A stretch of 64,000 bases of DNA from an uncultured Veillonellaceae bacterium (lineage in GTDB: Bacteria > Bacillota > Negativicutes > JARBTT01). The notes beneath the pieces were generated by a model. That model did no database searches, had not been told where the DNA came from, and saw only the letters and a program-made list of their open reading frames with translations. Position numbers and translations under genes: made by a program. Location of the stretch: assembly GCA_963805085.1 (NCBI GenBank), contig CAWDTA010000002.1:320001-384000 (forward strand), read 5' to 3'. This document shows, piece after piece, positions 2,312 to 21,558 of this stretch. Positions within the stretch are counted from its first letter, which is position 1; the number at the start of each line of letters is the position of its first letter.

Positions 2312-2334
2312 CCTGTACGCCTCCATGATAAAAG

Positions 2335-2370
2335 AAGGACAAGTTCCTATGAAATTAAGAACTTGTCCTT
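2335..2370 (-). terminator. Hairpin/intrinsic terminator between cas5 and cas3
   Basis: Perfect 12-bp inverted repeat AAGGACAAGTTC/GAACTTGTCCTT followed by CTTTT on the minus strand. Confidence 0.7.
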
Positions 2371-2373
2371 ACT

Positions 2374-3949
<1,576 letters not shown>

Positions 3950-3951
3950 TT

Positions 3952-5628: not shown

Positions 5629-5638
5629 CCCACCTCCT

Positions 5639-6370
5639 TTAGGCTAACACTTCAAACATACCAAATCCTTGACTTCGTCTTGAGCCAATCCCTGCATGAT
5701 AAAGAAAATTGAGCAGTTCTGGCTGACCCGTCAATTTATATACACCTAAACTTACGTCGATATGATACTTAAACGCAGTAACTACTGTTTTTTTCGGCAT
5801 AACCGGAACTATGGTAAAACCATGCAGTAAATTTCCATCCATTGCAAAAATACTAAGCTGTGCTTGTACAATTTTTTTAGCCATATCTGCAAAGTCCTCA
5901 CAAGTACAATCCACATATCGGTCTATATTCGTCTCACGACTATGCTCACGAAGCACCATTGGGCTGAGCATTTTTATCAAAATTTCATTTGAATTGATTT
6001 TATTATGTGGCAGTATTTTTACAGCCATGATTTTCATGCTATTTTGATGTTCTAAAGGGAATCCTTTCAATTTATTCTTCAAAATTGCATTATAAAGAAT
6101 CATAGCTTCCTTCATATCCGCTGTACTCAACGTAAAACTAATTACATTACCGCCAAGTTGAATAACGTTACCAACAAATTTAGGGCGGTTCATCCTTACG
6201 CCAAAAGTAAATTTTTTCATTATGTTGTCACGGTTTTTATAAAACTCGTCAAAAAATTCTTCTCCATAATCACTTAAATTGCTTTTGATAAACGATACAA
6301 AAAACGGACGAAAATCTTTTGGCAACTCGGGTTTATTCAATTCCAATTTTATCAATATCTGCACACACAT
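5639..6370 (-). CDS. cas6: CRISPR endoribonuclease Cas6
   Basis: C-terminal GIGSRRSQGFG loop; start set after the GGAGGTG RBS. Confidence 0.95.
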   Translation of the reverse strand: MCVQILIKLELNKPELPKDFRPFFVSFIKSNLSDYGEEFFDEFYKNRDNIMKKFTFGVRMNRPKFVGNVIQLGGNVISFTLSTADMKEAMILYNAILKNKLKGFPLEHQNSMKIMAVKILPHNKINSNEILIKMLSPMVLREHSRETNIDRYVDCTCEDFADMAKKIVQAQLSIFAMDGNLLHGFTIVPVMPKKTVVTAFKYHIDVSLGVYKLTGQPELLNFLYHAGIGSRRSQGFGMFEVLA

Positions 6371-6430
6371 CACCTCCCAATAATTTGATATTCCATACAT
6401 ATACAAATAATAACATATTTGTACATAAAT

Positions 6431-6466
6431 AAACACAGATATAAAGGAAATTTTATATCTGTGTTT
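6431..6466. terminator. Hairpin terminator downstream of rhuM, upstream of cas6
   Basis: 15-bp inverted repeat AAACACAGATATAAA/TTTATATCTGTGTTT. Confidence 0.7.
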
Positions 6467-6472
6467 TCTTTT

Positions 6473-7486
6473 TCATTCTCTTTTTATCTCTTTAACTGTT
6501 CGACTTCTTCCGCAAGCAACGTAATATCTGCATACTTTGCAACTTTCTATTCGCATCAAACAACTCATATTCCTTAATCGCCAATTCTTTAGCGACAACC
6601 GTTGATACTTTCCCTCCATTTTCTAGTACTTGCCTATTGGTAAATTGTAAAAACGCATTCAGTTTTGTTTCCTAATCGCCATGTGCATGGGAATATATTG
6701 CTTTGCCTGATCATCAGCATAATCTAAATACATCACCACAATCCGATTTAATGACTCAATTTCCTCTTTCGTCAAATAGTTTTTCGCTATGTCTATGTCA
6801 CTTTTGCGAACCTTTGTGCCCTTAAACGAGGTAAGCCCCATATTGGGTTTTGTGGCATCGGCACGTTCGGCGATGAGTTCTGCTGCGGTGTGTCCATGTA
6901 CACTATAATGCATTTTATTTTGCACTGTTTGAAAAAATTGTTTTGTACTTTCTAACTTCGCATCATAATCAATCGAAGTTTTATAGATTTCTGCGATTTT
7001 TTGATAAAACCGCTTTTCTGATGCACGAATATCTTTAATGCGGTCAAGCAATTCATCAAAATAATCTGCACCAAAGGCTTGCGGATTTTTTAGCCGTTCA
7101 TCATTCATCGCAAAGCCTTTTTTGCTGTAATCGGTCAAAACGCTCGATGCCCATTTACGAAAATGCATACCAACATTAGATCGCACCCGATAACCAATGG
7201 CTAAAATCATTTGAAAATTATAATGCTTTATATTGCGTTTAATCTGTCGATTTCCTTCATTTTGAACTATCCGGAAATTCCGGATAGTTGCCTCTTCCTC
7301 TAATTCACCATCTGCAATAATATTTATAATGTGTTCATTAATTGTCCGAACATCAACTTGATATAGTTCAGCCAAACTTCTCTGCGATAACCATATCGTA
7401 TCACCTCCAAAATAAACATCTAGCTTCGTATCGCCTTTTTCATTTTGATAGATAAGCATCTTGCCCAATAAATCCTGCATAAACAT
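6473..7486 (-). pseudogene. rhuM: RhuM (virulence RhuM family) gene, C-terminally disrupted
   Basis: IWLSQRSLAELY, AIGYRVRS, DYFDELLDRIKDIRASEKRFY; frameshift plus an in-frame TAG near 6675, after which ETKLNAFLQFTNRQVLENGGKVS continues in another frame. Confidence 0.85.
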
Positions 7487-7650
7487 ACCTCCTATTTACT
7501 AAAAAAGTAATAGTTCTTTTCTGAATGTATCCATAGTAGATCTTAAAGCTTCCGTACGAATTTCTATTAACTTCACATTTCCCTATAAAAAATATAGTTC
7601 CTGCCAAAGTAATACATAATTTAGCAGAAACTATATCTATCGGCATATTA

Positions 7651-8043
7651 TCAATCTATGAGCTTCGCTTCAAGCCCTGCATAAAAACCGTATCTAAAGG
7701 CGGAATCATTTCTTAAGTAATCATACTCTTCAATCTTTTCAATCAGTTTTTCCTTATCCTTCAATGCCTCCTGAATCTCGTGGAAGATTTCACTAGCCGT
7801 ATTATTCATAACATAGCCATTACAATCTTTTGCAAATGATAACATTTGAATGACTTTTCCAAGGTTGTACATACAAAAATTGAAGCAAAAATCTCCTGAT
7901 TTACTACCTGTTTCATTTAAAAATTGTTCAAAACTTTCAATCATCTTCATTTCTGGGCTATCTTCCTTTAATATTGGAATTCTAAATAATAATTCCTGAA
8001 TTCTTTTCATTTCCCGCTTGTCCATATTGTTCATATCTAGCAT
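7651..8043 (-). CDS. Hypothetical protein (cassette copy 1, C-terminal FRYGFYAG)
   Basis: 130-aa ORF; paralogs at 16856-17237 and 20060-20144. Confidence 0.8.
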   Translation of the reverse strand: MLDMNNMDKREMKRIQELLFRIPILKEDSPEMKMIESFEQFLNETGSKSGDFCFNFCMYNLGKVIQMLSFAKDCNGYVMNNTASEIFHEIQEALKDKEKLIEKIEEYDYLRNDSAFRYGFYAGLEAKLID

Positions 8044-8136
8044 GAATATGCCCCCTATCTTTCTTGTCCTAATCTTAGTAATCTACCTACTGCCTTATAC
8101 ATTTTAATTAGCGTAAACAACCTTTGATTTTCGTAA

Positions 8137-8253
8137 TAACTCCAAAAGTTTATTTTTAACTTCTAAAGCTATTATATATCTTTTATAGTTATAATTCAAT
8201 ATCTTTTATCGTTATTTTTATCTTTAATTTGTTTTTTAATATCGCTAATGATA
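8137..8253. promoter_or_regulatory. Phased operator-like array between the divergent hyp and xre genes
   Basis: TA(A/T)C-n7-G(T/C)TA-like units at about 8137, 8157, 8177, 8200, 8219 and 8240; the last two are degenerate. Confidence 0.5.
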
Positions 8254-8289
8254 GTATATTATCTATAGAAGTTAGTAAGGAGGTTATTT

Positions 8290-8511
8290 ATGATTAATAT
8301 AAAGATCGCAGAATTAATGGGAAAACATAAATTAACAAGAAAAGCCTTATCTGATATGACAGGTATACGACCTAATACAATTTCAGCACTTTGGAATGGA
8401 GATATAAAACGTTTAGAAATTCAGCAAATAGATAAATTGTGTGCTGCGCTCGACTGTCAACCAGCAGACTTGATGGAATACATTCCAGATAAAACTGACA
8501 ATCAACAATAA
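8290..8511 (+). CDS. Xre/Cro-C1 HTH regulator
   Basis: 73 aa HTH_26-like (LSDMTGIRPNTIS, LCAALDCQPADLMEY); AAGGAGG RBS. Confidence 0.9.
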   Translation: MINIKIAELMGKHKLTRKALSDMTGIRPNTISALWNGDIKRLEIQQIDKLCAALDCQPADLMEYIPDKTDNQQ

Positions 8512-8562
8512 TACCCCATACACATTCTAATAACGCATAAAGAACCGCATCAGCTTTAAATA

Positions 8563-8610
8563 CAAAAACTCCTGTAAAAAGTCCTTGCAGACATTTTACA
8601 GGAGTTTTTG
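8563..8610. terminator. Bidirectional terminator
   Basis: CAAAAACTCCTGTAAAA/TTTTACAGGAGTTTTTG inverted repeat between convergent xre and tctC. Confidence 0.8.
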
Positions 8611-8649
8611 CATCATATATCAATCGGAAAACTCATGTTTTCATCTATA

Positions 8650-9669
8650 TTAATTTTTCTGCGCTTTGATTTGCTCTAGAATGCCAGTTTCTTGTATGGT
8701 CTTAGCCAATTCATCACCATCGGAGATCCATTTTTCTTTGGATTCGTCGGAATTTAAATATTCCACTTGGAATCCTAAATTTTCGATATTAGCTTTAAAT
8801 TCAGGGTCGGTAATCATTGCTTTAAATCCTTCTTCGAGCTTAGCTTTGATTTCAGGTGGTAATTCTTTGGGAGCTGCTATTCCAATCCAATTTGTTAAGA
8901 CAATATCAAAGCCTTGTTCTTTAAAGGTTGGTATTTGCGCTAAGTCTGGATCTGTAGTTCTCAGTTCACCTGTTACCGCTAGTGCTCTTAGTGTGCCATT
9001 TTTAATTTGTTCTTTGACTGTTGCTGGATTAACAAAACCAATTTGAATATGGTTTCCTAATAAAGCAACAGTCACATCATTAGCGCCACGAAAGGGAACT
9101 TGCTCAAGCGTAATGTCAGTAGCTTTGGCAAATGTTCCGCCAAGAATATGCGATACGGAACCTATCCCTGTAGTACCGAATTTCAATTGTCCGGGATGCT
9201 GCTTGGCATATTCAATCAAGGAAGTGATATCTTGCCAAGGTTGCTCAGCTGGAACTACCATGATCCATGGTGAAGTTGCAACCTGCGCAATTGGTTCTAA
9301 GGCAGTTGGATAGTGATATTTCGTTGATTCATATAAGGGTTGTATCAGGACATCAATGGCACTCATACCGAGGGTATAACCATCTGGGCTGGCACTCACC
9401 AATTCATTCCAGCCGATGGTGGCTGCTCCGCCTGGTTTATTGACAACAACTAAAGGCTGTCCTAGATATTTAGGTGCCATTTTTTCCAATGATCGCGCCA
9501 CAAGATCCAATCCTCCTCCAGCACTAAAGGGTACAATGATAGTAATTGGTTTATCTGGATAATTTTTTATGGCAGATGTTGTTTTGCTTTGCATATCGGT
9601 GCAACCTCCCATTATGATTGAAATAAATAATAAACATACTATTGACAATAGGAACGATCTTTTTTGCAC
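8650..9669 (-). CDS. tctC: Tripartite tricarboxylate transporter substrate-binding lipoprotein (copy 1)
   Basis: YPDKPITIIVPFSAGGG, NKPGG, PDGYTL; lipobox-like MGGC. Confidence 0.93.
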   Translation of the reverse strand: MQKRSFLLSIVCLLFISIIMGGCTDMQSKTTSAIKNYPDKPITIIVPFSAGGGLDLVARSLEKMAPKYLGQPLVVVNKPGGAATIGWNELVSASPDGYTLGMSAIDVLIQPLYESTKYHYPTALEPIAQVATSPWIMVVPAEQPWQDITSLIEYAKQHPGQLKFGTTGIGSVSHILGGTFAKATDITLEQVPFRGANDVTVALLGNHIQIGFVNPATVKEQIKNGTLRALAVTGELRTTDPDLAQIPTFKEQGFDIVLTNWIGIAAPKELPPEIKAKLEEGFKAMITDPEFKANIENLGFQVEYLNSDESKEKWISDGDELAKTIQETGILEQIKAQKN

Positions 9670-9846
9670 TACGACATCTCCTTGTCTATCATTAAGGCAA
9701 TCAATCGTAACTGCTTATATACTTTGAACAATGATTGCCGTTTTTAAATCACTAATCGCATTAAAAAGCCACGGTAATAGCACCATATTTTTTCATCAGT
9801 GTTAATTTTTCTGTGCTTTGATTTGCTCTAGAATGCCAGTTTCTTG
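9611..9846. repeat. 236-bp near-identical junction repeat (copy at 10763-10998)
   Basis: Only 2 mismatches seen by eye between the two tctC junctions; period 1152 bp. Confidence 0.9.
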
Positions 9847-10821
9847 GATAGACTTAGCTAATTTATCACCATCCAAGTACCATTTTTCTTTGGAATCTTC
9901 GGAATTTAAATATTCCACTTGCAAACCTAAATTTTCGATATTAGCCTTGAATTCTGGATCAGCAATCATTGCTTTAAAACCTTCTTCAAGCTTAGTTTTA
10001 ATTTCTGGCGGTAGCTCTTTTGGTGCTGCTACTCCATACCAATTGCTTAATACAATATCAAAGCCTTGTTCCTTAAAGGTCGGTATTTGTGCTAAGTCTG
10101 GGTCAGTTAGCCGATGTTCACCTGTTGTTGCCAGTGCTCTTAATGTGCCATTTTTAATTTGTTCTTTAACTGTTGCCGGTGGAATAAAAGCACTTTGAAT
10201 ATGGTTACCTAACAAGGCAATAGCCGCTTCACTACCGCCACGAAATGGAACCTGTTCAAGAGTAATTTTAGTAAATTTGGCAAACGTTTCACCAAGAATA
10301 TGTGCTGGTGAGCCTATCCCTACATGACCAAATTTCAATTGTCCGGGGTGCTCCTTTGCATATCTAATCAAATCATCCACATCTTTCCAAGGCTGCTTTG
10401 CTGGCACTACCATTATAAATGGTAAAGTTGAAACTTGTACAATTGGTTCTAAGGCAGTTGGATAATGATATTTGGTTGACCCATATAATGGCTGGATTAG
10501 TACGTCAACTGCACTAATGCCAAGCGTATAACCATCTGGACTAGCATTCACTAGTTCATTCCACCCTATGGTGCCTGCTCCGCCTGTTTTGTTGACAACA
10601 ACTAAAGGTTGTCCTAGATACTTAGGTGCCAGCTTCTCCAATGTCCGAGCTAGCAAATCCAATCCTCCACCAGCACTAAAAGGTACAATGACAGTAATAG
10701 GCTTATCTGGATAACTTCTTATTGCTGTTGTTGTTTTGCTTTGCATATCTGTGCATCCTCCAATTATGATTGAAATAAATAATAAACATACTATTGACAA
10801 TAGGAACGATCTTTTTCGCAC
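9802..10821 (-). CDS. tctC: TctC (copy 2)
   Basis: Same motifs, 339 aa. Confidence 0.93.
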   Translation of the reverse strand: MRKRSFLLSIVCLLFISIIIGGCTDMQSKTTTAIRSYPDKPITVIVPFSAGGGLDLLARTLEKLAPKYLGQPLVVVNKTGGAGTIGWNELVNASPDGYTLGISAVDVLIQPLYGSTKYHYPTALEPIVQVSTLPFIMVVPAKQPWKDVDDLIRYAKEHPGQLKFGHVGIGSPAHILGETFAKFTKITLEQVPFRGGSEAAIALLGNHIQSAFIPPATVKEQIKNGTLRALATTGEHRLTDPDLAQIPTFKEQGFDIVLSNWYGVAAPKELPPEIKTKLEEGFKAMIADPEFKANIENLGLQVEYLNSEDSKEKWYLDGDKLAKSIQETGILEQIKAQKN

Positions 10822-10953
10822 TACGACATCTCCTTGTCTATCATTAAGGCAATCAATCGTAACTGCTTATATACTTTGAACAATGATTGCCGCTTTTAAA
10901 TCACTAATCGCATTAAAAAGCCACGGTAATAGCACCATATTTTTTCATCAGTG

Positions 10954-11973
10954 TTAATTTTTCTGTGCTTTGATTTGCTCTAGAATGCCAGTTTCTTGTA
11001 TGGTCTTAGTTAATTTATCAGCATCCAAACGCCATTTTTCCTTGGACTCGTCGGAATTTAAATATTCAGGTTGTAAACCTAAATTTTCGATATTAGCTTT
11101 GAATTCAGCATCGATGATGATTGCTTTGAACATTTCTTCTAGCTTAGTTTTAAGCTCTGGCGGTAGTTCTTTTGGTGCTGCCACTCCAATCCAAGTGTTT
11201 GAGGTGATATCAAAGCCTTGTTCCTTAAAAGTTGGTATCTGCGCTAATTCTGGGTCGGTTAGCCGCTGCTCGCTTGTTGTCGCTAATGCTCTTAGTGTGC
11301 CATTTGCAATTTGTTCTTTTACTGTTGATGGATTACTAAAAGCAATTTGAATATGGTTGCCTAATAAAGCTGCTGTCGATTCACTAGCACCATGAAAGGG
11401 AACTTGCTCAATATTAATGTCAGCAATCTCGGCGAAGGTTTCACCAATAATATGTGACATTGATCCTATCCCTGAGTGACCAAATTTCAATTGTCCTGGA
11501 TGTTGTTTGGCATAATTAATGATTTCATCCACATTCTGACAAGGATGATCAGCTTTGACTACCATGATAGTTGATAAAGTTGCAACTTGTGAAATTGGCT
11601 CTAAGGAAGTTGGATAGTGATATTTAGTTGTTCCATATAATGGTTGTACGAGTAGCTCAATTGAGCTAATACCCAGCGTATAACCATCTGGATTTGCACT
11701 AGTCAGTTCGTTCCATCCTATGGTGCCTGTTCCACCTGGTTTGTTGACAACAACTATGGGTTGTCCTAGATATTTAGGTGCCTCCTTTTCTAAAGCTCGG
11801 GCTACAAAATCCATTGCTCCTCCAGCACTAAAAGGTACAATGATGGTAATAGGCCTATCGGGGTAACTTTTTGTGGCAATTGTTGTTTTGCTTTGCATAT
11901 CGTTGCAACCTCCCATTATTATTGAAATAAGTAATAAACATACTGTTAATAATACTAAATTTTTTTTTTGCAC
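10954..11973 (-). CDS. tctC: TctC (copy 3)
   Basis: Same motifs, 339 aa. Confidence 0.93.
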   Translation of the reverse strand: MQKKNLVLLTVCLLLISIIMGGCNDMQSKTTIATKSYPDRPITIIVPFSAGGAMDFVARALEKEAPKYLGQPIVVVNKPGGTGTIGWNELTSANPDGYTLGISSIELLVQPLYGTTKYHYPTSLEPISQVATLSTIMVVKADHPCQNVDEIINYAKQHPGQLKFGHSGIGSMSHIIGETFAEIADINIEQVPFHGASESTAALLGNHIQIAFSNPSTVKEQIANGTLRALATTSEQRLTDPELAQIPTFKEQGFDITSNTWIGVAAPKELPPELKTKLEEMFKAIIIDAEFKANIENLGLQPEYLNSDESKEKWRLDADKLTKTIQETGILEQIKAQKN

Positions 11974-12050
11974 TGCATCATCTCCTCATTTTTCTACAAT
12001 TAACTACATATTATTCCATTAGTGTTAAACCTTACTATTTATGTATATTG

Positions 12051-12078
12051 CTTCGTCAATAAATATCAAATTCCTTCC
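12051..12078 (-). promoter_or_regulatory. SigH-like promoter for the tctC array
   Basis: Minus strand GGAAGGAATTTGATATTTATTGACGAAG, conserved upstream of tctC copy 4 (21313-21338). Confidence 0.5.
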
Positions 12079-12125
12079 AAATATTCAGGTATTTTTATAC
12101 TTGTTCAGATAGGAAAAAGACAAAT

Positions 12126-12169
12126 AAAAACTTCCTAACAGGTAAAATTCAAACCTATTAGGAAGCTTT
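12126..12169. repeat. Dispersed palindromic element, copy A
   Basis: AAAAACTTCCTAACAGGT...ACCTATTAGGAAG; related copies at 17698 and 35481. Confidence 0.75.
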
Positions 12170-12177
12170 ATCTTTAA

Positions 12178-12354
12178 TACGTTCTAGCAATTCATCAAAA
12201 TAGTCTACACAAAATGTTTATGAATTCTTGAGCCATTCGTCATTCATCACAAAGCCTTTTAGGGCTCTACTCAGTCAATACGCTCGATGCTCAATTACGA
12301 AAATGCATTCCCACATTAGATCGCACCCGATAACCAATGGCTAAAATCATTTGA
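12178..12354 (-). pseudogene. Internal rhuM fragment
   Basis: Closely matches 7040-7213 (ACATTAGATCGCACCCGATAACCAATGGCTAAAATCATTTGA is identical). Confidence 0.85.
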
Positions 12355-12617
12355 TTTCTGTGTTGCTTGATATGGTATTAGTATTCTTTGTTAAAGCATA
12401 ATTATAAAAATGAAACTAAACTACAAGCTGCCTGAGCTGGTAATATTATGTTGAAATATAAGAAGGACATAGCATCAACTACGTCCTAAGAACTGAATAA
12501 TCTCACTTACTCAATCGAAACGTCCTGTTAGCGCAGGGCGTTTTGGTTTATTTAGTATATGTTGTTATAACGTTTTAAAACTATAAAGACAATAATTAGT
12601 TCATCTAATGCTTTCAT

Positions 12618-12641
12618 GTTTCAATCCACTCACCTGTGAAC
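12618..12641 (-). CRISPR. Solitary partial CRISPR-like repeat (type I-C style)
   Basis: Minus strand ...TTCACAGGTGAGTGGATTGAAAC; single copy, no array. Confidence 0.4.
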
Positions 12642-12921
12642 AATTCCCCTATCAGGCCCTGAACCTATTGATTAAGAGTCTTTAAAGTGACATTTATGTA
12701 CAATATGATATGTTGCAAACTATTGGTTTTGTTGGGTTTGTTGGGTTTATAGACTTTAATGTTTACATTAATTAGTATTAGCTGATGTCACTTCTAACAC
12801 GGGTGACATCAATTGTCATCGTTACCATAAAGCTTCACGGGGTCTAAAATCATCAAAATAGGGTATTGGTATGTTTGTATCAAAACGCTGATTCTGGGAA
12901 TTTTTTTACTCGAATAACATC

Positions 12922-13020
12922 TGTTGTACAATCCTAATCAAGAATGGAATCAATGTTAAAATAATTAGCAAAAGATAGGGACATTGTGATATTAAAATAA
13001 CATTGGAACTCTATATTCAT
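12922..13020 (+). pseudogene. Tyrosine integrase C-terminal relic
   Basis: Translates CCTILIKNGINVKIISKR*GHCDIKITLELYIH, the box II (L)GH...T...Y motif, with a stop in place of Leu. Confidence 0.8.
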
Positions 13021-13035
13021 TACCCCAAAATTTTT

Positions 13036-13689
13036 CTATCCAACAAGCGCTAATTCCATAAAATTATTCATCATAATACATGGACATAAAGAACCAGATT
13101 TTCGAAACAACCAGCCCTGTAAGAGTGAAAAAGCAAAAATAAACGTTATAAACTGCGACCAAGCAAGCGCATTATGCGCAATTTTATCGGCATTCACATA
13201 CCAAATAGGAAAATGGATACTCACGAACAACAAGCTCACTAACAAATTTGCTTTCCAAAAGGAAAAATGCTCCTTTATTTTTTGCAAGAAATATCCCAGA
13301 AATAATATCTCCTCAACGACTCCGGCGATAAACACAGTATTCATCCACTGCGTAAACGTAAGCCATGGAGAAAACACCATATTGGCATAAAACAGCGCAA
13401 TGCATAAGGATATAAAGCTAACACCCAGGACGCCCCACAGTATGGTCGCTCGCTTGCCGGAATCCAGCTTCAAATAAACAAATACCGTGTATTGTCCAAC
13501 CTTCAATATAGCAATGATCGGCAATAGCCAAACCGTTATTTCCCAAATTAGGCCAAACGCATCACTAAAAATAACTCCCTCCATTCTCAAAAAGGGAAAA
13601 AGAACAACTTCTGAAAGCGCCCAAATCATGTAATAGAAAACAATATGCTTTAAGAGACTGTACCGGTTACTTGTTTCTACAAAATTCAA
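13036..13689 (-). CDS. CPBP/CAAX (Abi) intramembrane protease, probably degenerate
   Basis: EEILFLG and FVSIH motifs; conserved Arg and the final HxxxN His are missing. Confidence 0.7.
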   Translation of the reverse strand: MNFVETSNRYSLLKHIVFYYMIWALSEVVLFPFLRMEGVIFSDAFGLIWEITVWLLPIIAILKVGQYTVFVYLKLDSGKRATILWGVLGVSFISLCIALFYANMVFSPWLTFTQWMNTVFIAGVVEEILFLGYFLQKIKEHFSFWKANLLVSLLFVSIHFPIWYVNADKIAHNALAWSQFITFIFAFSLLQGWLFRKSGSLCPCIMMNNFMELALVG

Positions 13690-13960
13690 TTCCTCCCCAG
13701 CCTTATATTGTCATACCTAGTTATTATATCACAGAATCCTTTATATTCTCTTTTTTCATTCCTCATAAGATATTGGCTCGACTGATTCCAAAGGAATTTT
13801 CATGTTTGCTGAAATGATTTTTCGCTGTTTGACTATTCCATTTCCTGCCAACAACTATTATTCCACAAAATTTCATACAAAATCTAGCTATATACTACCT
13901 AGTACTTATTTTAGATAAAAACCAACCCCAATCTCAATAAAAGAACTGGGGTTAATAGTA

Positions 13961-14879
13961 TTATTCAACTGTCGGAATAACCATAAAGCTAATAATTTTA
14001 TCAAAAGATAAATATTCTTTACTACGATCTACAGAATCATTAATTGCATAGCTCATAGTATCAGTACTTATATGCTGATTATACCAATTAACAAAACCAT
14101 CAGCTTCAGTATCCGTTAAACGATATTCACGCTCACTTGAATCAATCATAGTAACTCGCAATAATACTTCAGTACTATCTACTGGCGTAGCTGAAGCTTC
14201 ATTTGAATTAGCACTTTCACCATAAGTATTTAAAGCGGTTACTACATAATAATAGGTAGTCCCATTCGTTACGCTAGTATCTGCATAACTAACCAGTCAC
14301 ATTGCTAGCAATCGTTGTATATGTGCCACCTGCAGTTGTAGAACGTTTTACATTGTAGCTAGTTGCTCCGACAACTGCTGTCCATGATAATGTTACTTTG
14401 GAATCTCCTTCGGTAGCGGTTAAATTGGTTGGTGCAGCAATTGGTGAATAGGGTTTAAGTTCTCCTTTTTCATCGATATCAATAGCATCCAATCCAAAAT
14501 ATCCAGATGAAATGTTTTTAATTTCGCACCAATGTTCGCCATCGCTTAAATTATTTATTTCATATAATAAGACTTGATACTTTTGATTACCATACTCACT
14601 GTATGTGCCACAAACAATTCCATCAATTGTTACTTGTATTGACTGAGATCGATTAGTATATATCTGTTGAATAATTCGTAATTTCCCACCAGTAAAATTA
14701 AAAACTATCGATCCAGAGGCAGAAACTGTTGATCCAATCTGAGTTCCGTTGTACAAAGACTTCCCATCTGCACCAGTATTTCTTGTCCAACTTCCAATAT
14801 AGCTTATATTGCTGTCGGTATCATCATACCTTTTCCACCCCGTCTCAGGTGCTGTTAATTGTTCTCCTAGTGTTGCCAT
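13961..14879 (-). pseudogene. Fibronectin type III domain protein, frameshifted
   Basis: APTNLTATEGDSKVTLSW...; after 14291 another frame continues SYADTSVTNGTTYYYVVTA...EASATP...LLRVTMIDSSEREY, joining the two ORFs. Confidence 0.85.
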
Positions 14880-15105
14880 TTTACATTCCTCCAAATTAAT
14901 TTATTATTTTTGTGAACCCAATATAGCCAAGGAACTCTTATTTGCAATTGTATTTTTCCTGTTTATCGGCTTTCATCTATATACATTCTTATGAGCACAA
15001 TTTTTAAACACAAAAAATAAAAAAAGATGCAACCATAGTTACACCTATCAGAATAATCAACAACATTCCTACTAATCTTCATTATATTTTACTAAATTTG
15101 ACACG

Positions 15106-15192
15106 TGGAATAGCGTAGGGTAATACCGCCACCTCGGCTCACAAAGTACCCGCCTTTGGAATAGCAAAAGACACCCCGCCCTATGGAGTGCC
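15106..15192 (-). promoter_or_regulatory. GC-rich putative cis-regulatory RNA (terminator plus ops-like element)
   Basis: GGCACTCC/GGGGTGTC hairpin plus TTTT, then GCTATTCCA twice flanking AAAGGCGGGTAC...GAGCCGAGGTGGCGGTATTACCCTAC. Confidence 0.45.
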
Positions 15193-15228
15193 TATAAATA
15201 TACGATATAAATTTTATTGTGTACTTTC

Positions 15229-15580
15229 TCAATCTCTTTTTATCTCTTTAATTGTTTTTACTTCTTCCGCAAGCGCCGTAATATCTTCATCACTTTGCAA
15301 TTTTCTATTCGTATCAAACAACTCATATTGCTTAATCGCCAATTCTTTGGCGACAACGGCTGATACTTTTCCTGCATTTTCTAGCACTTGCCTATTGCTC
15401 CATTTGTGGAAATCCATCCCCACATTAAAACGCCCCCGATAGCCAATGGCTAATTGATTGTGAAATTGTACTGCTTGATATTACGTTTTATCTGTCTGTT
15501 TTTTTATTTTGAACTTGTAAGCATTCCTTACAAGTTGTATCTTCAAACAATTCACTCCCCACATATATAACATTTGCCAT
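15229..15580 (-). pseudogene. rhuM relic with a large internal deletion
   Basis: An AIGYR..VGMDFHKW segment is joined directly to SNRQVLENAGKVSAVVAKELA; matches both ends of copy 1. Confidence 0.85.
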
Positions 15581-15585
15581 TTTTC

Positions 15586-16594
15586 TCATAACTCTTCATC
15601 TAGCAGCTGTTGAAAATCTTCTAATCGCAATTCACGTTTTAATTCTTCTTCTGTTGGCAAATATGCCATATATTTTGAAGCGAAAATTTGTTGGTTATCT
15701 TCTGGTAGAGTATATCTGATAACGGCATCATTTTTTTCGGCACACAATACAATTCCAATAGGCTTAGTATCGCCTTCATTCATGAGTTCACGCATACATC
15801 TGCATTTGTCCGAGGTCTTGATGTGTTAACTTCCCCAATTTCAAATCAATCAGTACAAAACATTTTAGAATATAGTTATAGAAAACAAGATCGATATAAA
15901 AATGCTGTCCATCAAATGCGATATGTTTTTGCCGTGCAACAAAAGAAAATCCTCTGCCCATTTCCAATAAAAATTTCTGCAAATGGTCTATAATTGCTTG
16001 CTCCAAATCTTTTTCATAAAAATGCGGATTAGCTGACAAATCCAAGAACTCCAATACATAAGGATCTTTGATGATTTTCTCATATTCTGGCTTCGGCTCC
16101 AATTTTCCGATTTCAGCTGCAACTGCATCTTTGTCACGACTGGCAAGAATACGTTCATAATAAAGTGTTGTAATTTGCCGTTCTAGTTGACGTACACTCC
16201 ATCCTGATTGCACACATTCCTCTGTATAAAATCCCCGTATTTTATCATCAGAAACACGCATCAACAAACGATAATGCGACCAACTTAATTCGGGGCACAG
16301 TGTGCCCCGAATTGGATATGCAATATAAAATTGTCGCATTCGACGTAATTCACGTTCAGTAAAGCCTTTCCCAAATTCTTTTGTTAACTGCTGCGCTAAA
16401 AATTTCAATAAACCTTTACCGTAATCTGCCCTATCATTTTCACCACAAGAAATATAAATCTGTTCACCGATTTCCCAATATGCCTGCACCATTGCAAAAT
16501 TGACCGCTGTATATACTTTTTTCTGCGCAGTGATAACACTGCTACGAATTGTCTGATAAAGCTCTTTTGGTACAACTACATTTTTTTCTTTCAT
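15586..16594 (-). pseudogene. YhcG/DUF1016 PD-(D/E)XK nuclease, frameshifted
   Basis: YWEIG, LSWSHY, KDPYVLEFL, IDLVFYN, IDLK; break at QMQMY|RELMNEGD where the usual VNYxx is missing. Confidence 0.88.
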
Positions 16595-16855
16595 GATAAC
16601 TCTCCTCCAGACTTCCAGCAAGATCAGTTTCGAAATTCTATAGCCTTGCTTTTTAAATCAAAAACATTCTCCCGTACTGATTTCCATTAAATTCACATTT
16701 CCCTATAAGAAATAAAGTTCCTGCCAAAGTAACACATAGTTTGGCAAAAACTTTTATTGTCGATAATAAAATTAAAATTCCAACTATAAAAACTGACTAA
16801 CTTTTTATGCTGGTCAGTTTTTTATATGCTTATTGCTTCCCTTATCGACACATCA

Positions 16856-17237
16856 TCAATCCGACAACCTCGCTTCAATTCCTGCATAAAAACCATATCT
16901 AAATGCGAAATCACTTGCTAAACAATCATAGTCGTCAAGCTTTTTAATCAGGTCAGCTCTATCTTTTAAGTTCGGTTAAAATTTTACTGGCTGTATCATT
17001 ACTAGCATAACCATTGCACTCATCGGCAATTGATAACATTTGAATCAATCTTCCAAGATTGTACATACAAAGATTGAAGCAAAGATTTCCTGATTTATTA
17101 CCTTTCTCACTTAAAAATTGTCCAAAAAATTCAACCAACTTCACCTCTGAACCATTTTCCATCGGTATTGGAATTCTACATAATAATTCCTGAATTCTTT
17201 TCATTTCTCGCTTGTCCATATTATTCATATCTAGCAT
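16856..17237 (-). pseudogene. Hypothetical protein cassette copy 2, frameshifted
   Basis: MLDMNNMDKREMKRIQELL identical to copy 1; FRYGFYAG tail in another frame. Confidence 0.8.
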
Positions 17238-17314
17238 GCATATGCCCCCTATCATTATTTTTTCATAGTCTAAATAATTCGTTTACTATTCCTGTACCTT
17301 ACAAATGGACTAAT

Positions 17315-17414
17315 TAACCTCATAAGGTTATTATATTATCACTAGTCAATATTTTTTAACTCTATAAGGGTATTTTGTATTATTTAATTTGAAATTACTA
17401 ACCTCACATAGTAA
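17315..17414. promoter_or_regulatory. Three operator-like palindromes at 42-bp spacing
   Basis: TAACCTCATAAGGTTA (17315), TAACTCTATAAGGGTA (17357), TAACCTCACATAGTAA (17399). Confidence 0.65.
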
Positions 17415-17439
17415 TATAATAATAAAAGGAGGTTTTATT

Positions 17440-17670
17440 ATTATACAGTGTAATTTACGTAGGTTAATGGCGGATAATCGCATTGATGATATTACTGAAT
17501 TAATGCGATTATCAGATATTAGTCGAAATTCCATCAACAAACTTTACCGAGAAACCGACATAGAAACTATCAAACTTGAAACATTATTCAGGTTGTGTAA
17601 TACCTTCAACTGTAAATTATCTGATTTAATGGAATACATACCAGAGAACACGGATAATAAACAAATATAA
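17440..17670 (+). CDS. Xre/Cro-C1 HTH regulator (copy 2; probable ATT start)
   Basis: QCNLRRLMA...LCNTFNCKLSDLMEY; AAGGAGG RBS 7 nt before the in-frame ATT. Confidence 0.8.
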   Translation: MIQCNLRRLMADNRIDDITELMRLSDISRNSINKLYRETDIETIKLETLFRLCNTFNCKLSDLMEYIPENTDNKQI

Positions 17671-17697
17671 AAAGGTTCTTGATAATAGCAGAAAAAT

Positions 17698-17755
17698 AAA
17701 AACTTCCTTTCAGGTAAGAATTAAAATAAATTCAAACCGGAAAGGAAGTTTTTTT
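17698..17755. repeat. Dispersed palindromic element, copy B (terminator-like)
   Basis: AAAAACTTCCTTTCAGGT...ACCGGAAAGGAAGTTTTT. Confidence 0.75.
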
Positions 17756-17806
17756 ATCATTTAATATTTCAATCTACGCACTTGCGAAAGGTGCGATTTC
17801 ACTTGT

Positions 17807-18196
17807 TTATAAAATGAGTGGCAATATATATATAAGTATGATGATGATAAAAGCGATAATCAATTTTGGGGTTGGTTTTAAGGTTTTATCTTTTAATGTA
17901 AATTCACCAACGAGACGCGCTATCCAAAAAAATACTGTACCCAATAGTAAAACTTTTCCCAGCTCGGTAGTTGGTAACTCATAAGAAAATCTAATACTAA
18001 TATATCCAATTAAAAGCATAAACACAATGACAGCTACATTCAACATTTGAAAAACAGCTTGATTAATTGGAGACATTCGAGGTAGTTCTTCCTGCCAATT
18101 TAAAAATTTAAACCTCCAAAAGGCAGCATGGAAAAAGGCAAAAAACAAGTGGAAAGCACCTCCAACAATTAATAAAAGCGAGAAATAATTACTCAT
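17807..18196 (-). CDS. Hypothetical 4-TM membrane protein
   Basis: Hydrophobic segments, AAGGAG RBS. Confidence 0.75.
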   Translation of the reverse strand: MSNYFSLLLIVGGAFHLFFAFFHAAFWRFKFLNWQEELPRMSPINQAVFQMLNVAVIVFMLLIGYISIRFSYELPTTELGKVLLLGTVFFWIARLVGEFTLKDKTLKPTPKLIIAFIIIILIYILPLIL

Positions 18197-18323
18197 TTAA
18201 AAAGACTCCTTATAGTTTTTACGTAACATAAACTTTACTTTCTTAATTATGCCAATAGTAGAAAAACTTAATTTACCTTGGTAAATCGTATATATTTTAC
18301 TTTCTTGCCAACACCAACTATTT

Positions 18324-19091
18324 TCAACATATTCTTCTCAACCAATTTTTTAATAAACGTCCAGACATGGTTTGCGAAATGGATAATAATACTTCTACAT
18401 CTTTTCTCACTATAGAGCCATTTTCTTCTACAAGTTCCAAGATGATTTTTTCGTTGTCGTTTAATGCATTTTGTCGTAAAGGCATGTTTTTGTTAGGTAG
18501 GATAATTTTAAAAGCATTATCAGATGCTTCAATTTGCGGCTTTTCTCTACTATCCTTATAGCTATCTATAATTTTTTGTATACCAGTTCCATATGCTTCA
18601 ATGAGTTTCAAACGATAAAATACTGCTGCCAATTTTTCATTACGACACTGCGATACACCAAAGAGAATATCATTCATTGTAATCCCCTTAACTAGCCCGC
18701 CCAGAGACACAAACTCGATTCTATCCTCAAATATACTAATGAGAGTACTGCCACTGTACGAGTATTCTCGATGAACTAACGAATTCAAGAGTGCTTCCCG
18801 TAAAGCTTCTTCAGGGTAATCTTTATGATCAATGCGATATAATTTTGAAAATTCAGCTCTTGTTTTGTTATATAGATCAATAAAATTATAAACCTCATTC
18901 ATTTGATTGAGCAACGAACCACTAAATTCACGTCGATCTTTAAATACTGATTTTGTAACACCTTCAAAATAAGCCGCTTTAATGCTGTGTACACATTGAT
19001 CTGACAACAATAGTCCAAGGTTCGTGTAGATATGATCTGGTTTGATAGAATCTCTAATCATATTAGAAGCCTGCAAAGAGGTTTCATCCAC
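18324..19091 (-). pseudogene. AlbA/RecG-C (HATPase_c_4) transcriptional regulator remnant
   Basis: TNLGLLLSDQC, ALREALLNSLVHREY, RNEKLA, IEAYGTG; N-terminal domain missing and a poly-A frameshift in the C-terminal HTH. Confidence 0.75.
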
Positions 19092-19178
19092 ATTATCTTA
19101 AAACAAACTAAGGTAACCCATAAATGCAGTTACCCTAGCTTCAATTGGTTATATTCATTACTGTTCTTGCAACAACCA

Positions 19179-19886
19179 TCATTTCACATTCATCAATCTT
19201 AAATAATCTTTTTGTGCTTCAATCACTTGTTCAGCAATAAACTGAATAAATACTTCTTCTTTAACGTGTCCTTTTTCCAACGATGCGATATATTCACTTC
19301 TCAAAATCGGCGGGATGATTGTAATAGGGTAACCACTTTGTAATAAAACTAGGTTCATCAATAGCCGTGCTACTCTGCCATTTCCATCAATGAACGGATG
19401 AATATAAACAAATTCTTTATGAAATTTAGCTGCAAGCTCTACTGGATGTAGGTTTTCTTTGATCTGCTTCATTTGCACAATAAATTTCGCCATCAGTTCA
19501 GGTACAATTTCCGGCTCTGGCATTGGGTAATTTGAGCCACTAATGAAAACTCTTTGTTTACGGTAGTTACCAGCGCTTACTTCATTGATATTTTGGTAAA
19601 AAAGCCAATGTAATTTTTTGATATCTGCTTCGGTAATACTATTCGACGATACCAATTGATACATAAAATCATAGGCTCTGCTATGCCCCACCGCTTCTAA
19701 ATGATCACGTAACGGTTTTCCGCCTACCGTTGAGCCATCTTCTAAAACAACTTTTGTTTCCGATTCTGTCAAAGAATTTCCTTCCAAGGCATTACTGCTG
19801 TAAGTTAAGCCAATCCGAAAATATTGATTTAACTCTTTGATTTCAACACTATCTAAAGGACGTATACTCTTTATCCTTTCGTTCAT
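19179..19886 (-). CDS. fic: Fic family AMPylase (class II)
   Basis: HPFIDGNGRVAR catalytic motif and N-terminal SNALEGN inhibitory motif. Confidence 0.93.
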   Translation of the reverse strand: MNERIKSIRPLDSVEIKELNQYFRIGLTYSSNALEGNSLTESETKVVLEDGSTVGGKPLRDHLEAVGHSRAYDFMYQLVSSNSITEADIKKLHWLFYQNINEVSAGNYRKQRVFISGSNYPMPEPEIVPELMAKFIVQMKQIKENLHPVELAAKFHKEFVYIHPFIDGNGRVARLLMNLVLLQSGYPITIIPPILRSEYIASLEKGHVKEEVFIQFIAEQVIEAQKDYLRLMNVK

Positions 19887-20059
19887 TTGGTCAATTTTTT
19901 GAAATAAAGTAATGATAATTCACCTTCTTATCGTCTTTTTATTATCATATCATATTTCATTGATAAAATATAAATCTCGTGGGAATTTATGTATTTAAAA
20001 GTTGTATACATACGGAGAGATTTTCATCCGCCTATCCCTAGGCCCTTATTACCATATCA

Positions 20060-20144
20060 TCAATCCAATAACCTCACTTCAACTCCTGCATAAAAAGCCA
20101 TATCCAAAGGTGGGTCACTTACTAAACAACCATAATCGTCAAGC
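20060..20144 (-). pseudogene. 3' remnant of the cassette hypothetical gene (copy 3)
   Basis: Nucleotide match to 16856-16940. Confidence 0.75.
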
Positions 20145-20210
20145 TCTCGAAAGCATTTTCCTATCTCATATTAAGAGGAAATGAAAAATATAATTCATTT
20201 TTCATCACTA

Positions 20211-21230
20211 TTAATTTTTCTGTTCTTTTATTTGCTCCAAAATGCCCGTTTCTTGTATCATCTTAGCCAATTTATCACCATCGGAGTGCCATTTATCTTT
20301 GGAATCTTCGGAATTTAAATATTCCACTTGCAAGCCTAAATTTTCAATATTAGTTTTAAATTCTGGATCAGCAATCATTGCTTTAAAACCTTCTTCGAGC
20401 TTAGCTTTAATCTCTGGTGGTAACTCTTTTGGCGCTACCGCGCCAAACCAATTGGTTAATACAATATCAAAGCCTTGTTCCTTAAATGTTGGTATCTGTG
20501 CTAAGACCGGATCAGTTAATCTCTGGTCACATGTCACTGCTAGTGCTCTTAGCGTGCCAGTTTTAATTTGTTCTTTGACTACAGATGGATTAACAAAAGC
20601 AACTTGGATATGATTACCTAACAAAGCGGTAATCGCTTCAGTACCGCCGCGAAAGGGAACTTGTTCGAGATTTATATCGGTAATTTTGGCAAATAATTCG
20701 CCACTAATATGTGGTAGTGAACCTATACCTGGATGACCAAATTTCAATTGTCCTGGATACTGCTTAGCATATTTAATTATGGCATCAATATCTTGCCAAG
20801 GCTGGTTGGCTTGGACTACCATGATCAAGGGTGAAGTTGTAACTTGGGCAATTGGTTCTAAGGATGTTGGATAATGATATTTAGTTGCCCCGTATAATGG
20901 TTGTAGGAGTACATTAATATCGCTAATACCAAGTGTATATCCATCTGGACTGGCATTCGTCAGTTCATTCCAACCTAGAGTGCCAGTTCCACCTGGTTTA
21001 TTGACAACAACTAATGGCTGCCCTAAATATTTAGGTGCCAGCTTCTCCATTGTCCGAGCTACCAAATCCAAGCCTCCACCAGCACTAAAAGGTACAATGA
21101 TGGTAATAGGCCTATCTGGATACCTTTTTATAGCAGTTGTTGTATTGCTTTGCATTTCGCCGCAACCTCCAATTATGATTGAAATAAGTAATAAACATAT
21201 TGTTAACAACACTAAAATCTTTTTTTGCAC
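20211..21230 (-). CDS. tctC: TctC (copy 4)
   Basis: Same motifs, 339 aa. Confidence 0.93.
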   Translation of the reverse strand: MQKKILVLLTICLLLISIIIGGCGEMQSNTTTAIKRYPDRPITIIVPFSAGGGLDLVARTMEKLAPKYLGQPLVVVNKPGGTGTLGWNELTNASPDGYTLGISDINVLLQPLYGATKYHYPTSLEPIAQVTTSPLIMVVQANQPWQDIDAIIKYAKQYPGQLKFGHPGIGSLPHISGELFAKITDINLEQVPFRGGTEAITALLGNHIQVAFVNPSVVKEQIKTGTLRALAVTCDQRLTDPVLAQIPTFKEQGFDIVLTNWFGAVAPKELPPEIKAKLEEGFKAMIADPEFKTNIENLGLQVEYLNSEDSKDKWHSDGDKLAKMIQETGILEQIKEQKN

Positions 21231-21558
21231 TACAACATCTCCTTGTCTATCGTTTTACAATTAACGACATATTAATACAACAATGTTAAATATTGCTAAT
21301 TTATGTATATAACTTCGTCAATAAATATCAAATTCCTCCTAAATATTCAATTATTTAAATAGGTAACGGGTAAATAAAAATTCATATAACAATATTCAAA
21401 ACAAAAATGATATGACGACCAGACCTCATGTATTAATATAAATTTAATAAAAAGATTTAATATGAAATAAATAGTTGTTTTTTTTCTCCCTAATGAATGT
21501 ATATAAATAGAGCCGGTATACCGGGCTATTCAAAATTATTTTAAGGGGGGAATTGTTT

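Follow-up and report, generated by a model that had tools for sequence, protein, structure and literature searches.

INTRODUCTION

Among the described systems that lie closest to the locus considered here are the C proteins of restriction–modification (R-M) systems, which are Xre/Cro-type controllers of defence operons, the heteroimmune CI/Cro-type switch regions of temperate phages and integrative elements, and, at the level of DNA repeats, the repetitive extragenic palindromic (REP) sequences, bacterial interspersed mosaic elements (BIME) and Correia-type elements, which are dispersed between genes and contain transcription signals. CapH–CapP and CapK–CapS exemplify two-protein regulator modules located upstream of a variety of immune operons (bioRxiv 10.1101/2022.04.27.489752; PMC13373217), and a survey of integrons reports no complete integrons from Firmicutes (Cury et al. 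2016, PMC4889954). Here we analyse a 64,000-nucleotide (nt) stretch of the genome of an uncultured Veillonellaceae bacterium, hereafter the window, in which a 130-amino-acid (aa) gene, here called hyp, recurs together with a divergent xre gene beside a type I-B cas operon. A first-pass annotation of this DNA had seen in the pair a reusable regulatory or integration module, possibly the remnant of a small integrative element that accumulated in tandem and captured defence genes. We think it probable, though by no means assured, that the locus instead comprises an ancestral, vertically inherited hyp–block–rhuM unit with a divergent xre beside the cas operon, a decaying second unit and a third relic, and that its cargo has varied by way of a short repeat, the block, which lies downstream of hyp.

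The genome holding the window (G000) is 83% complete, and the window is C2:320001-384000 of it. Class-wide counts refer to 401 sampled genomes of the class, the repeat having also been counted over 110 genera. A related genome, G004, served as the reference for unit order, synteny and the ratio of nonsynonymous to synonymous substitution rates (dN/dS), while a second one, G001, belongs to the same genus as G000, with 94–97% identity in two housekeeping proteins, and is 84% complete in 280 contigs. Repeats in the window were defined by self-BLAST together with a repeat finder, and the neighbours of the hyp–xre copies are called candidate defence genes on the basis of PADLOC.

Compared with these systems, the locus shows both likeness and difference. 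As with C proteins, a small helix–turn–helix (HTH) gene borders a defence locus, and operator-like repeats overlie a promoter; it differs in that xre diverges from an orphan 130-aa gene and is not co-transcribed with a nuclease, and the match of the first xre to the PADLOC “Control_protein” model is weak (E 0.0027, far below any threshold). CapH–CapP and CapK–CapS are the closest analogue to the idea of the first-pass annotation, being two-gene modules with an HTH repressor upstream of varied defence genes. However, hyp matches no peptidase family (10 family members scanned) and no kinase family, and its window copy lacks an HExxH motif; moreover, the hyp module is not widespread, being found in 2 of the 401 class genomes (G000 and G004) with one conserved neighbourhood, in G004, and its varied cargo is explained by the block. 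With CI/Cro switches the locus shares divergent promoters lying between the gene for a small HTH protein and its neighbour, and an HTH protein and operators that appear to have co-diverged in two types; it differs in that its surroundings contain neither genes of phages or integrative elements nor a recombinase gene, and in that hyp has no detectable DNA-binding domain.

AN ANCESTRAL UNIT, A DECAYING COPY AND A RELIC

The region from 6.4 to 21.3 kb is bounded by the type I-B cas operon and glycoside-hydrolase genes. Unit A corresponds approximately to the first copy of hyp, unit B to the second, and relic C is the third; their parts are as follows.

38–6436: type I-B cas operon (cas3, cas5, cas7, cas8b, cas6), by Pfam
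6534–7486, minus strand: rhuM-A (RhuM family, PADLOC PDC-S05), its C-terminal ~66 codons out of frame
7547–7633, minus strand: block A, in which a long A/U-rich hairpin is followed by a T-run and a conserved box (nhmmer E 2e-23)
7651–8043, minus strand: hyp-A, intact, 130 aa, acidic (isoelectric point, pI, 4.8), a predicted all-helical orphan
8044–8289, no strand: divergent control region A, between hyp-A and xre-A
8290–8511, plus strand: xre-A, a 73-aa Cro/C1-type HTH protein (PF13443, E 1.8e-21)
15238–15568, minus strand: rhuM-B relic, residues 56–127 and 279–336 only
15586–16621, minus strand: yhcG, a DUF1016 N-terminal domain and a PDDEXK nuclease (PADLOC PDC-S02), split into two open reading frames (ORFs)
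16667–16753, minus strand: block B (nhmmer E 2.6e-23), at whose downstream edge the homology to unit A stops
16856–17255, minus strand: hyp-B, a pseudogene frameshifted by an 11-nt deletion, of another subclade than hyp-A
17256–17439, no strand: control region B, unrelated to region A
17440–17670, plus strand: xre-B, an HTH_26 protein (E 6.6e-18)
20043–20145, minus strand: hyp relic C, the last ~30 codons, of B type, with no block after it

Self-BLAST and the repeat finder bear out that hyp occurs three times, as had been noted from the letters, with the correction that the second copy is broken: the 11 nt deleted from hyp-B are present in metagenome relatives, on contigs of three of the four runs with relatives. 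Copies A and B match at 78% over 428 nt (7638–8065 versus 16843–17259, E 1e-98). The relic, which is ~100 nt long and abuts a Fic gene, is closer to copy B (20043–20145 versus 16839–16941; 83%, E 4e-22) than to copy A (74%); a Fic gene also neighbours xre in G004.

Copy 1 is, by comparison with G004, the ancestral locus. That genome carries a single copy in the order cas1, cas4, cas3, cas5, cas7, cas8b, cas6, rhuM (intact, 336 aa), block, hyp and divergent xre, with Fic, a Doc fragment, tail-fibre-like genes and tctC on the far side of xre. Gene order agrees between the two genomes from cas3 up to xre, and it agrees again from a radical-SAM gene through GlmU and past it, with identities of 87% for GlmU, 78% for cyanophycin synthetase, 76% for Cas8b and 84.5% for xre-A and its orthologue, and synonymous divergence (dS) is similar, at 0.8–1.7, for hyp, xre, rhuM, cas6, cas7 and cas8b. 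This synteny and the like dS values identify unit A as the vertically inherited copy. The first-pass annotation had itself listed single homologs with fixed neighbours and no enrichment of defence genes as counting against its model; the single, syntenic G004 copy, with the same neighbours, comes close to that. In G001, despite its housekeeping identity to G000, neither Cas8b nor hyp was matched in the assembled 84% of the genome, and the cas–hyp island may be absent there or unassembled.

Unit B, judged by its divergence, is not a recent duplicate of unit A. The hyp-B product is 66% identical to that of hyp-A and 84–85% identical to the metagenomic proteins P0002 and P0005, with which it groups in the hyp tree, while hyp-A groups with P0010, P0007 and the G004 sequence (clade supports 98/98 and 96/96). 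The two types may reflect either an old paralogy common to relatives or an acquisition.

The genes past the block have a history of their own. rhuM-A matches PF13310 (E 1.7e-96, profile positions 1–204 of 252), and tblastn with the intact G004 RhuM places residues 1–270 at 7486–6677 and residues 270–318 at 6680–6534, with two 1-nt deletions relative to G004. Beside copy 2, yhcG stands in place of rhuM codons 1–55 and the rhuM leader, from the block edge on. The rhuM remnants at that place indicate that the repeated unit was rhuM–block–hyp–xre, and yhcG is best read as a later replacement in a decaying copy. The differing cargo that had been reported for the copies is thus present today but largely secondary, both full units having had rhuM before yhcG replaced the rhuM 5′ end in one of them. 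The cargo labels stood for RhuM, YhcG/DUF1016 and Fic (Pfam, PADLOC), but the “AlbA-like regulator” proved to be a C-terminal piece of HATPase_c_4. The neighbours are defence candidates by PADLOC, as the idea of capture by hyp–xre would have it, but the cargo differences are attributed to the block. Overall, the earlier interpretation is partly supported, and the locus looks mostly like an old duplication followed by decay rather than a travelling switch.

A PREDICTED REPRESSOR SWITCH

Both full hyp copies face a divergent xre, as the first-pass annotation stated, and both xre ORFs pass the HTH_26 (PF13443) test, xre-A at 76.6 bits and xre-B at 65.2 bits against a cut-off of 22. Their proteins are 38% identical over 52 aa, and the 3′ ends of the two genes match at 74% by self-BLAST (8437–8508 versus 17593–17664). 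At the codon aligned with the xre-A ATG, xre-B has an ATT, 7 nt past a strong ribosome-binding site (17425–17442), so that the gene either uses a rare start codon or has lost its start codon. The control regions and gene ends carry the following elements.

8135–8148 (inverted), 8180–8192 and 8203–8216: CTTTTNNNGTTAT-type motifs, three or four copies, in region A
8199–8171, minus strand: promoter-like site for hyp, TTGAAT-17-TATAAT, overlapping the repeated motifs
8560–8613, no strand: inverted repeat after xre-A, bidirectional and terminator-like, with 24-nt arms that are 92% complementary
17314–17332 and 17356–17374: two palindrome-containing 19-nt repeats in region B
17698–17753, no strand: terminator-like hairpin after xre-B, shared with a convergent membrane-protein gene

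The ~165 nt nearest xre-A are ~90% conserved with G004, the repeated motif being kept, and the CTTTTNNNGTTAT-type motifs are putative operators. From the sequences, the two units appear to represent two co-diverged repressor/operator specificity types. The notion of a reusable regulatory module therefore survives in part: hyp–xre with its own control region is indeed repeated, in two specificity types, but the hyp family is tiny and G004 has a single copy.

In the mechanism that we propose, the 73-aa Xre would bind the repeated motifs overlapping the hyp promoter, thereby repressing hyp and probably also xre. The hyp transcript would end at the long hairpin and T-run of the block, and the gene past the block, rhuM, or yhcG in unit B, would be read by read-through or from the conserved box. 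The hyp product itself would most likely work by contacting other proteins, for instance modulating RhuM or Xre, rather than by acting on DNA. The cargo differences would have arisen at a class-wide repeat where flanking genes get exchanged, and not by gene capture on the part of hyp–xre.

THE HYP PROTEIN

Relative to G004, dN/dS is 0.16 for hyp and 0.07–0.13 for its neighbours (xre, rhuM, cas6, cas7, cas8b), which indicates a real coding gene under constraint slightly weaker than that of the neighbours; hyp is thus under purifying selection. The family is tiny: a collection of 5.8 billion yielded 8 non-self clusters and one of 1.84 billion yielded 2 true representatives, and hyp was not found in the only other genome from the family and order to which the window belongs. 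It is acidic, with a pI of 4.5–5.1 in 10 of 11 sequences. Nothing scored above cut-off in Pfam, NCBIfam, PHROGs or PADLOC (where RT_UG14 reached only 17 bits), and the best match by sequence in the PDB had an E of 0.16. An AlphaFold2 model from a 10-row alignment is all-helical, its mean predicted local distance difference test (pLDDT) score of 43.7 being too poor for a fold search. In the ESM Atlas, hyp-A found no usable match and the best score was 0.80, for P0006; a lead from P0006 to DUF6809 (Atlas 0.77) was not reproduced when 10 family members were run through hmmscan at E up to 10.

Two further phmmer matches, P0011 (a CHAT-TPR protein) and P0012 (an Ig-repeat protein), are weak and were set aside as evidence for hyp function. 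Residues 237–487 of the 1767-aa P0011 carry four ~70-aa repeats that are 42–47% identical to hyp residues 4–47, a likeness that we treat as that of a short helical motif.

THE BLOCK AND ITS REPEAT FAMILY

Blocks A and B match at 87% over 84 nt (7549–7632 versus 16669–16752, E 1e-22), the homology ending at 7549/16669, and copy 2 has 90 nt with an extra hairpin between hyp and the block. The block hairpin, of 15–19 bp, is A/U-rich and lies on the hyp-sense strand. It folds at −24.3 kcal/mol (z −4.6) in block A and at −19.9 kcal/mol in block B, and the range is −19.4 to −24.3 kcal/mol in four of four copies, with z-scores from −2.3 to −4.6. The changes between A and B are G-U/G-C changes that keep the pairing on the hyp-sense strand only. 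With its stable stem–loop and T-rich run on the sense strand, the block has the predicted pattern of an intrinsic terminator. Readings of it as a sigma-54 or SigH-like promoter were dropped, as the spacing and key bases are not conserved (by eye).

The conserved downstream block that the first-pass annotation attached to the switch is repeated as described, but it is not specific to the switch: it belongs to a repeat spread through the class, copies of which are also present where there is no hyp. Contig C5 of G000 has a third close copy, upstream of a methyltransferase gene, and the family occurs without hyp both there and in G001. A profile of four block copies found 32 sites in G000 at E<0.01; a profile of the commonest repeat type found 71 at E<0.001, block A matching it at E 4.9e-4. 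G004 and G001 both carry the repeat, and across the class it was found in 40 of the 401 genomes, spanning 19 of the 110 genera. On the strength of these profile matches, the block is a diverged member of a class-wide intergenic repeat and not a part of the hyp–xre switch. No Rfam family matched the repeat or the block in the window, the array sample or the C5 locus, and an exact-pattern scan for the block among metagenome contigs gave 0 matches.

Of the 71 sites, 48 are co-oriented copies of a ~130-nt unit that form an array ~135 kb long and outside the window (G000:C2:1,382,000-1,517,500). With ORFs counted from 90 aa upward, 17 of its 47 intervals hold one plus-strand ORF, 7 hold one minus-strand ORF and 6 hold none, that is, 30 of 47 hold at most one; in all there are 63 ORFs on the plus and 41 on the minus strand. 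The genes are of accessory types, among them several GNATs, DJ-1, AraC and a split IS110. The gene on the left flank, which is fumarase-like, maps elsewhere in G004.

Outside the window, G000:C5:487000-506900 and G001:C274 are ~95% identical, and their gene content differs exactly at block-type repeats. Past the 3′ edge of the block there is a methyltransferase gene in the former and a nucleoside hydrolase gene in the latter, and G001:C274 has an extra insert composed of a Fer4 gene, a block and a PIG-L gene. As homology ends at the 3′ edge of the block in two comparisons, that between units A and B and that between these two contigs, the block marks exchange points. It may do so by serving as a recombination site or simply by passively providing homology.

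COMPETING EXPLANATIONS

First, the block may be the junction or recombination site of an integron-like cassette system whose recombinase is absent or unknown, with rhuM, yhcG and the C5 methyltransferase gene as cassettes and hyp–xre as bystanders. We regard this as possible but doubtful. It would account for the kinship of the block with a ~130-nt repeat that has 71 matches genome-wide and is spread through the class, for the co-oriented array with its mostly single, accessory genes, and for the breaks of homology at the 3′ edge of the block, both between A and B and between the ~95%-identical contigs with their gene–block–gene insert. Yet unit B has one block only and the first 55 codons of its rhuM are deleted, so that the event there was not a clean cassette insertion; the array ORFs lie on both strands; and genes for tyrosine or serine recombinases are lacking near both the window and the array, the three PF00589 matches in G000 falling outside C2:320001-384000 and C2:1.38-1.52 Mb and the two resolvase matches lying away from both. 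Furthermore, inspection by eye revealed no R/L box symmetry resembling that of attC, and a repeat that combines a terminator with a promoter could mark breakpoints simply by offering homology to ordinary recombination.

Set beside integrons and the integrase-less clusters of attC sites lacking integron-integrases (CALIN) characterised in that survey, the array is alike in its co-oriented similar repeats, its mostly single accessory genes, its ~135-kb extent and the lack of an integrase nearby. It differs in that there is no IntI gene, in that the repeat is a hairpin plus a non-palindromic box (by eye, the first ~45 nt alone are palindromic) rather than an imperfect palindrome over its full length, and in that ORFs occur on both strands; the window itself has only two copies, 9 kb apart, one of them following a deletion. 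Among the papers listed by a search on integrons in Negativicutes, none was related by its title.

REP/BIME and Correia-type elements provide the other natural comparison. Like them, the block family consists of short hairpin repeats between genes, oriented with transcription and present in many copies per genome; unlike them, it is strongly clustered in one array, sits at gene-content breakpoints and has no Rfam match.

Second, the rhuM–hyp–xre units could, as the first-pass annotation proposed, be remnants of a small integrative element that was inserted repeatedly in tandem and captured defence genes, which we consider unlikely. The evidence that bears on this lies largely in the features around and between the units.

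8650–11973, minus strand: three tandem tctC paralogues at 1152-nt spacing
12118–12374, minus strand: a paralogue of the xre-B terminator (12118–12165) fused to a rhuM relic (12170–12374, residues 85–152)
12122–17693, no strand: a 5.6-kb accessory segment with a rhuM relic, a CPBP protease gene, phage-tail-like relics and unit B
17807–19886, minus strand: a membrane protein (129 aa, no family match), an HATPase_c_4 fragment and the Fic gene
20211–21230, minus strand: tctC4, which with its upstream region is a paralogue of tctC3 with its upstream region

The 5.6-kb segment is polymorphic in its presence, with paralogous hairpins at its ends: the joint 12121→17694 occurs on one ~2-kb contig in each of the soil-metagenome runs X1 and X3, ~98% identical to the window, with sides of 64–70 nt and 15 nt shared, which shows that close relatives exist without this segment and hence without unit B. 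Within 14 kb there are four copies of rhuM and three of hyp, the terminator relic and the rhuM relic at 12118–12374 adjoin each other as they would at a junction between tandem units, and each of the two specificity types has closer relatives elsewhere, those of copy B being metagenomic. On the other side, neither Pfam on 40 ORFs nor whole-genome scans placed an integrase, resolvase or transposase gene in the window. hyp had no match in 72,556 plasmid records, 50,697 phage records or a viral contig collection, and no hyp-related loci were found in the collections of genome contigs, metagenome contigs and viral contigs. The single G004 copy, with its fixed neighbours and with dS like that of the flanking genes, points the same way. 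The joint itself falls inside two paralogous terminator-like hairpins (12118–12153 and 17690–17726; 37 nt, 86% identical, 15 nt shared), whose compensatory stem differences mark them as old paralogues and not as fresh target duplications. Of the integrative-element proposal, the segment missing in relatives and the metagenomic affinities of copy B speak for it, and the lack of a recombinase gene in the window and of hyp in the plasmid, phage and viral collections speaks against it.

Several observations on these flanking features may be added. Two ORFs at 13961–14894 match phrog_10059, an uncharacterised phage family, and tail-protein-like FN3 segments, and look like relics of a tail-fibre-type gene; in the equivalent gap G004 has three tail-fibre-like genes. 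The tctC flanks are as the first-pass annotation described them. The four tctC paralogues share 80–83% nucleotide identity, self-BLAST matching 10941–12094 to 20198–21356 at 80%, and tctC3 and tctC4 have upstream sequence in common (12037–12099 and 21299–21361); G004 has two tctC copies. The Fic protein (PADLOC PDC-S04/SoFic) is 39% identical to the one encoded beside xre in G004. The ORF formerly called AlbA-like (18324–19091) comprises the HATPase_c_4 C-terminal domain alone, lacks its N-terminal part and starts directly after Fic, and is for these reasons probably a truncated gene; it also has weak PADLOC matches to Argonaute-associated N-terminal domains.

Third, hyp may be an antitoxin-like partner that neutralises RhuM as a toxin, with Xre controlling the transcription of both genes, a proposal that we find improbable. 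For RhuM, a role as a toxin domain that modifies proteins in defence loci has been proposed (PMC3710099); the hyp product is acidic and small, hyp precedes rhuM in unit A of G000, in G004 and formerly in unit B, and hyp-B is broken where rhuM-B is destroyed. Between the two genes there is a 165-nt spacer with a strong hairpin (−24 kcal/mol, T-run), and the adjacency expected of a type II toxin–antitoxin pair was not found; hyp was found in only two of the 401 class genomes; and RhuM genes occur alone, PADLOC PDC-S05 being a single-gene system. A second rhuM of G000 (330 aa, 48% identical to the G004 RhuM), at C2:428998-433706, has neither hyp nor xre, and this copy in an R-M operon indicates that hyp is not an obligate RhuM partner. 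By eye, from translations, it lies directly upstream of type I R-M genes resembling hsdM, hsdS and an hsdR fragment.

Finally, an anti-CRISPR-like (acr–aca) or cas-regulating pair acting on the adjacent type I-B CRISPR-Cas system is suggested by the small, acidic, fast-evolving and lineage-restricted hyp, by its small HTH partner and by a position two genes from cas6 in both genomes, but is very improbable, as hyp and xre are divergent rather than co-transcribed, the locus belongs to the chromosome and is inherited vertically, the pair is separated from the cas genes by rhuM, and neither unit B nor relic C is beside cas genes.

Several points weigh against the duplication-and-decay explanation that we favour. 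The promoter scan gave fewer sites than shuffled sequence (2 versus 13.3), the terminator scan passed over the hairpin of the block because a loop of more than 8 nt exceeds the limit of that scan, and the operator, promoter and terminator roles are read from consensus or predicted fold. The biochemical role assigned to hyp is unsupported, with a pLDDT of 43.7 and no family match. The grouping of hyp-B with metagenomic proteins and not with hyp-A means that duplication within the lineage cannot be separated from horizontal acquisition. In addition, the genome is 83% complete, and the single-base frameshifts seen in rhuM-A and yhcG may stem from errors of assembly.

IMPLICATIONS

Taken alone, the hyp–xre pair is a minor result: a lineage-restricted orphan under an Xre-type repressor, with a textbook history of duplication and decay. 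Even so, the two putative co-diverged repressor/operator types would offer a compact natural system for the study of specificity switching, and the unit offers a route to the function of RhuM, a poorly understood defence candidate. The block, for its part, connects the defence island with a repeat family found across the class, whose copies coincide with breakpoints in gene content and build long arrays of single accessory genes with no integrase gene nearby. If that repeat is a recombination site, it would represent a cassette system in Firmicutes, a group reported to be without complete integrons (PMC4889954). Only tentatively, then, may the ~85-nt block be viewed as the working junction of an undescribed integron-like cassette system of spore-forming Negativicutes, with no integrase gene nearby, and the swaps between rhuM and yhcG and between G000 and G001 as cassette exchanges at that junction. 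Were this true, a defence island beside a CRISPR locus would be fed by the same cassette machinery as the 48-copy array.

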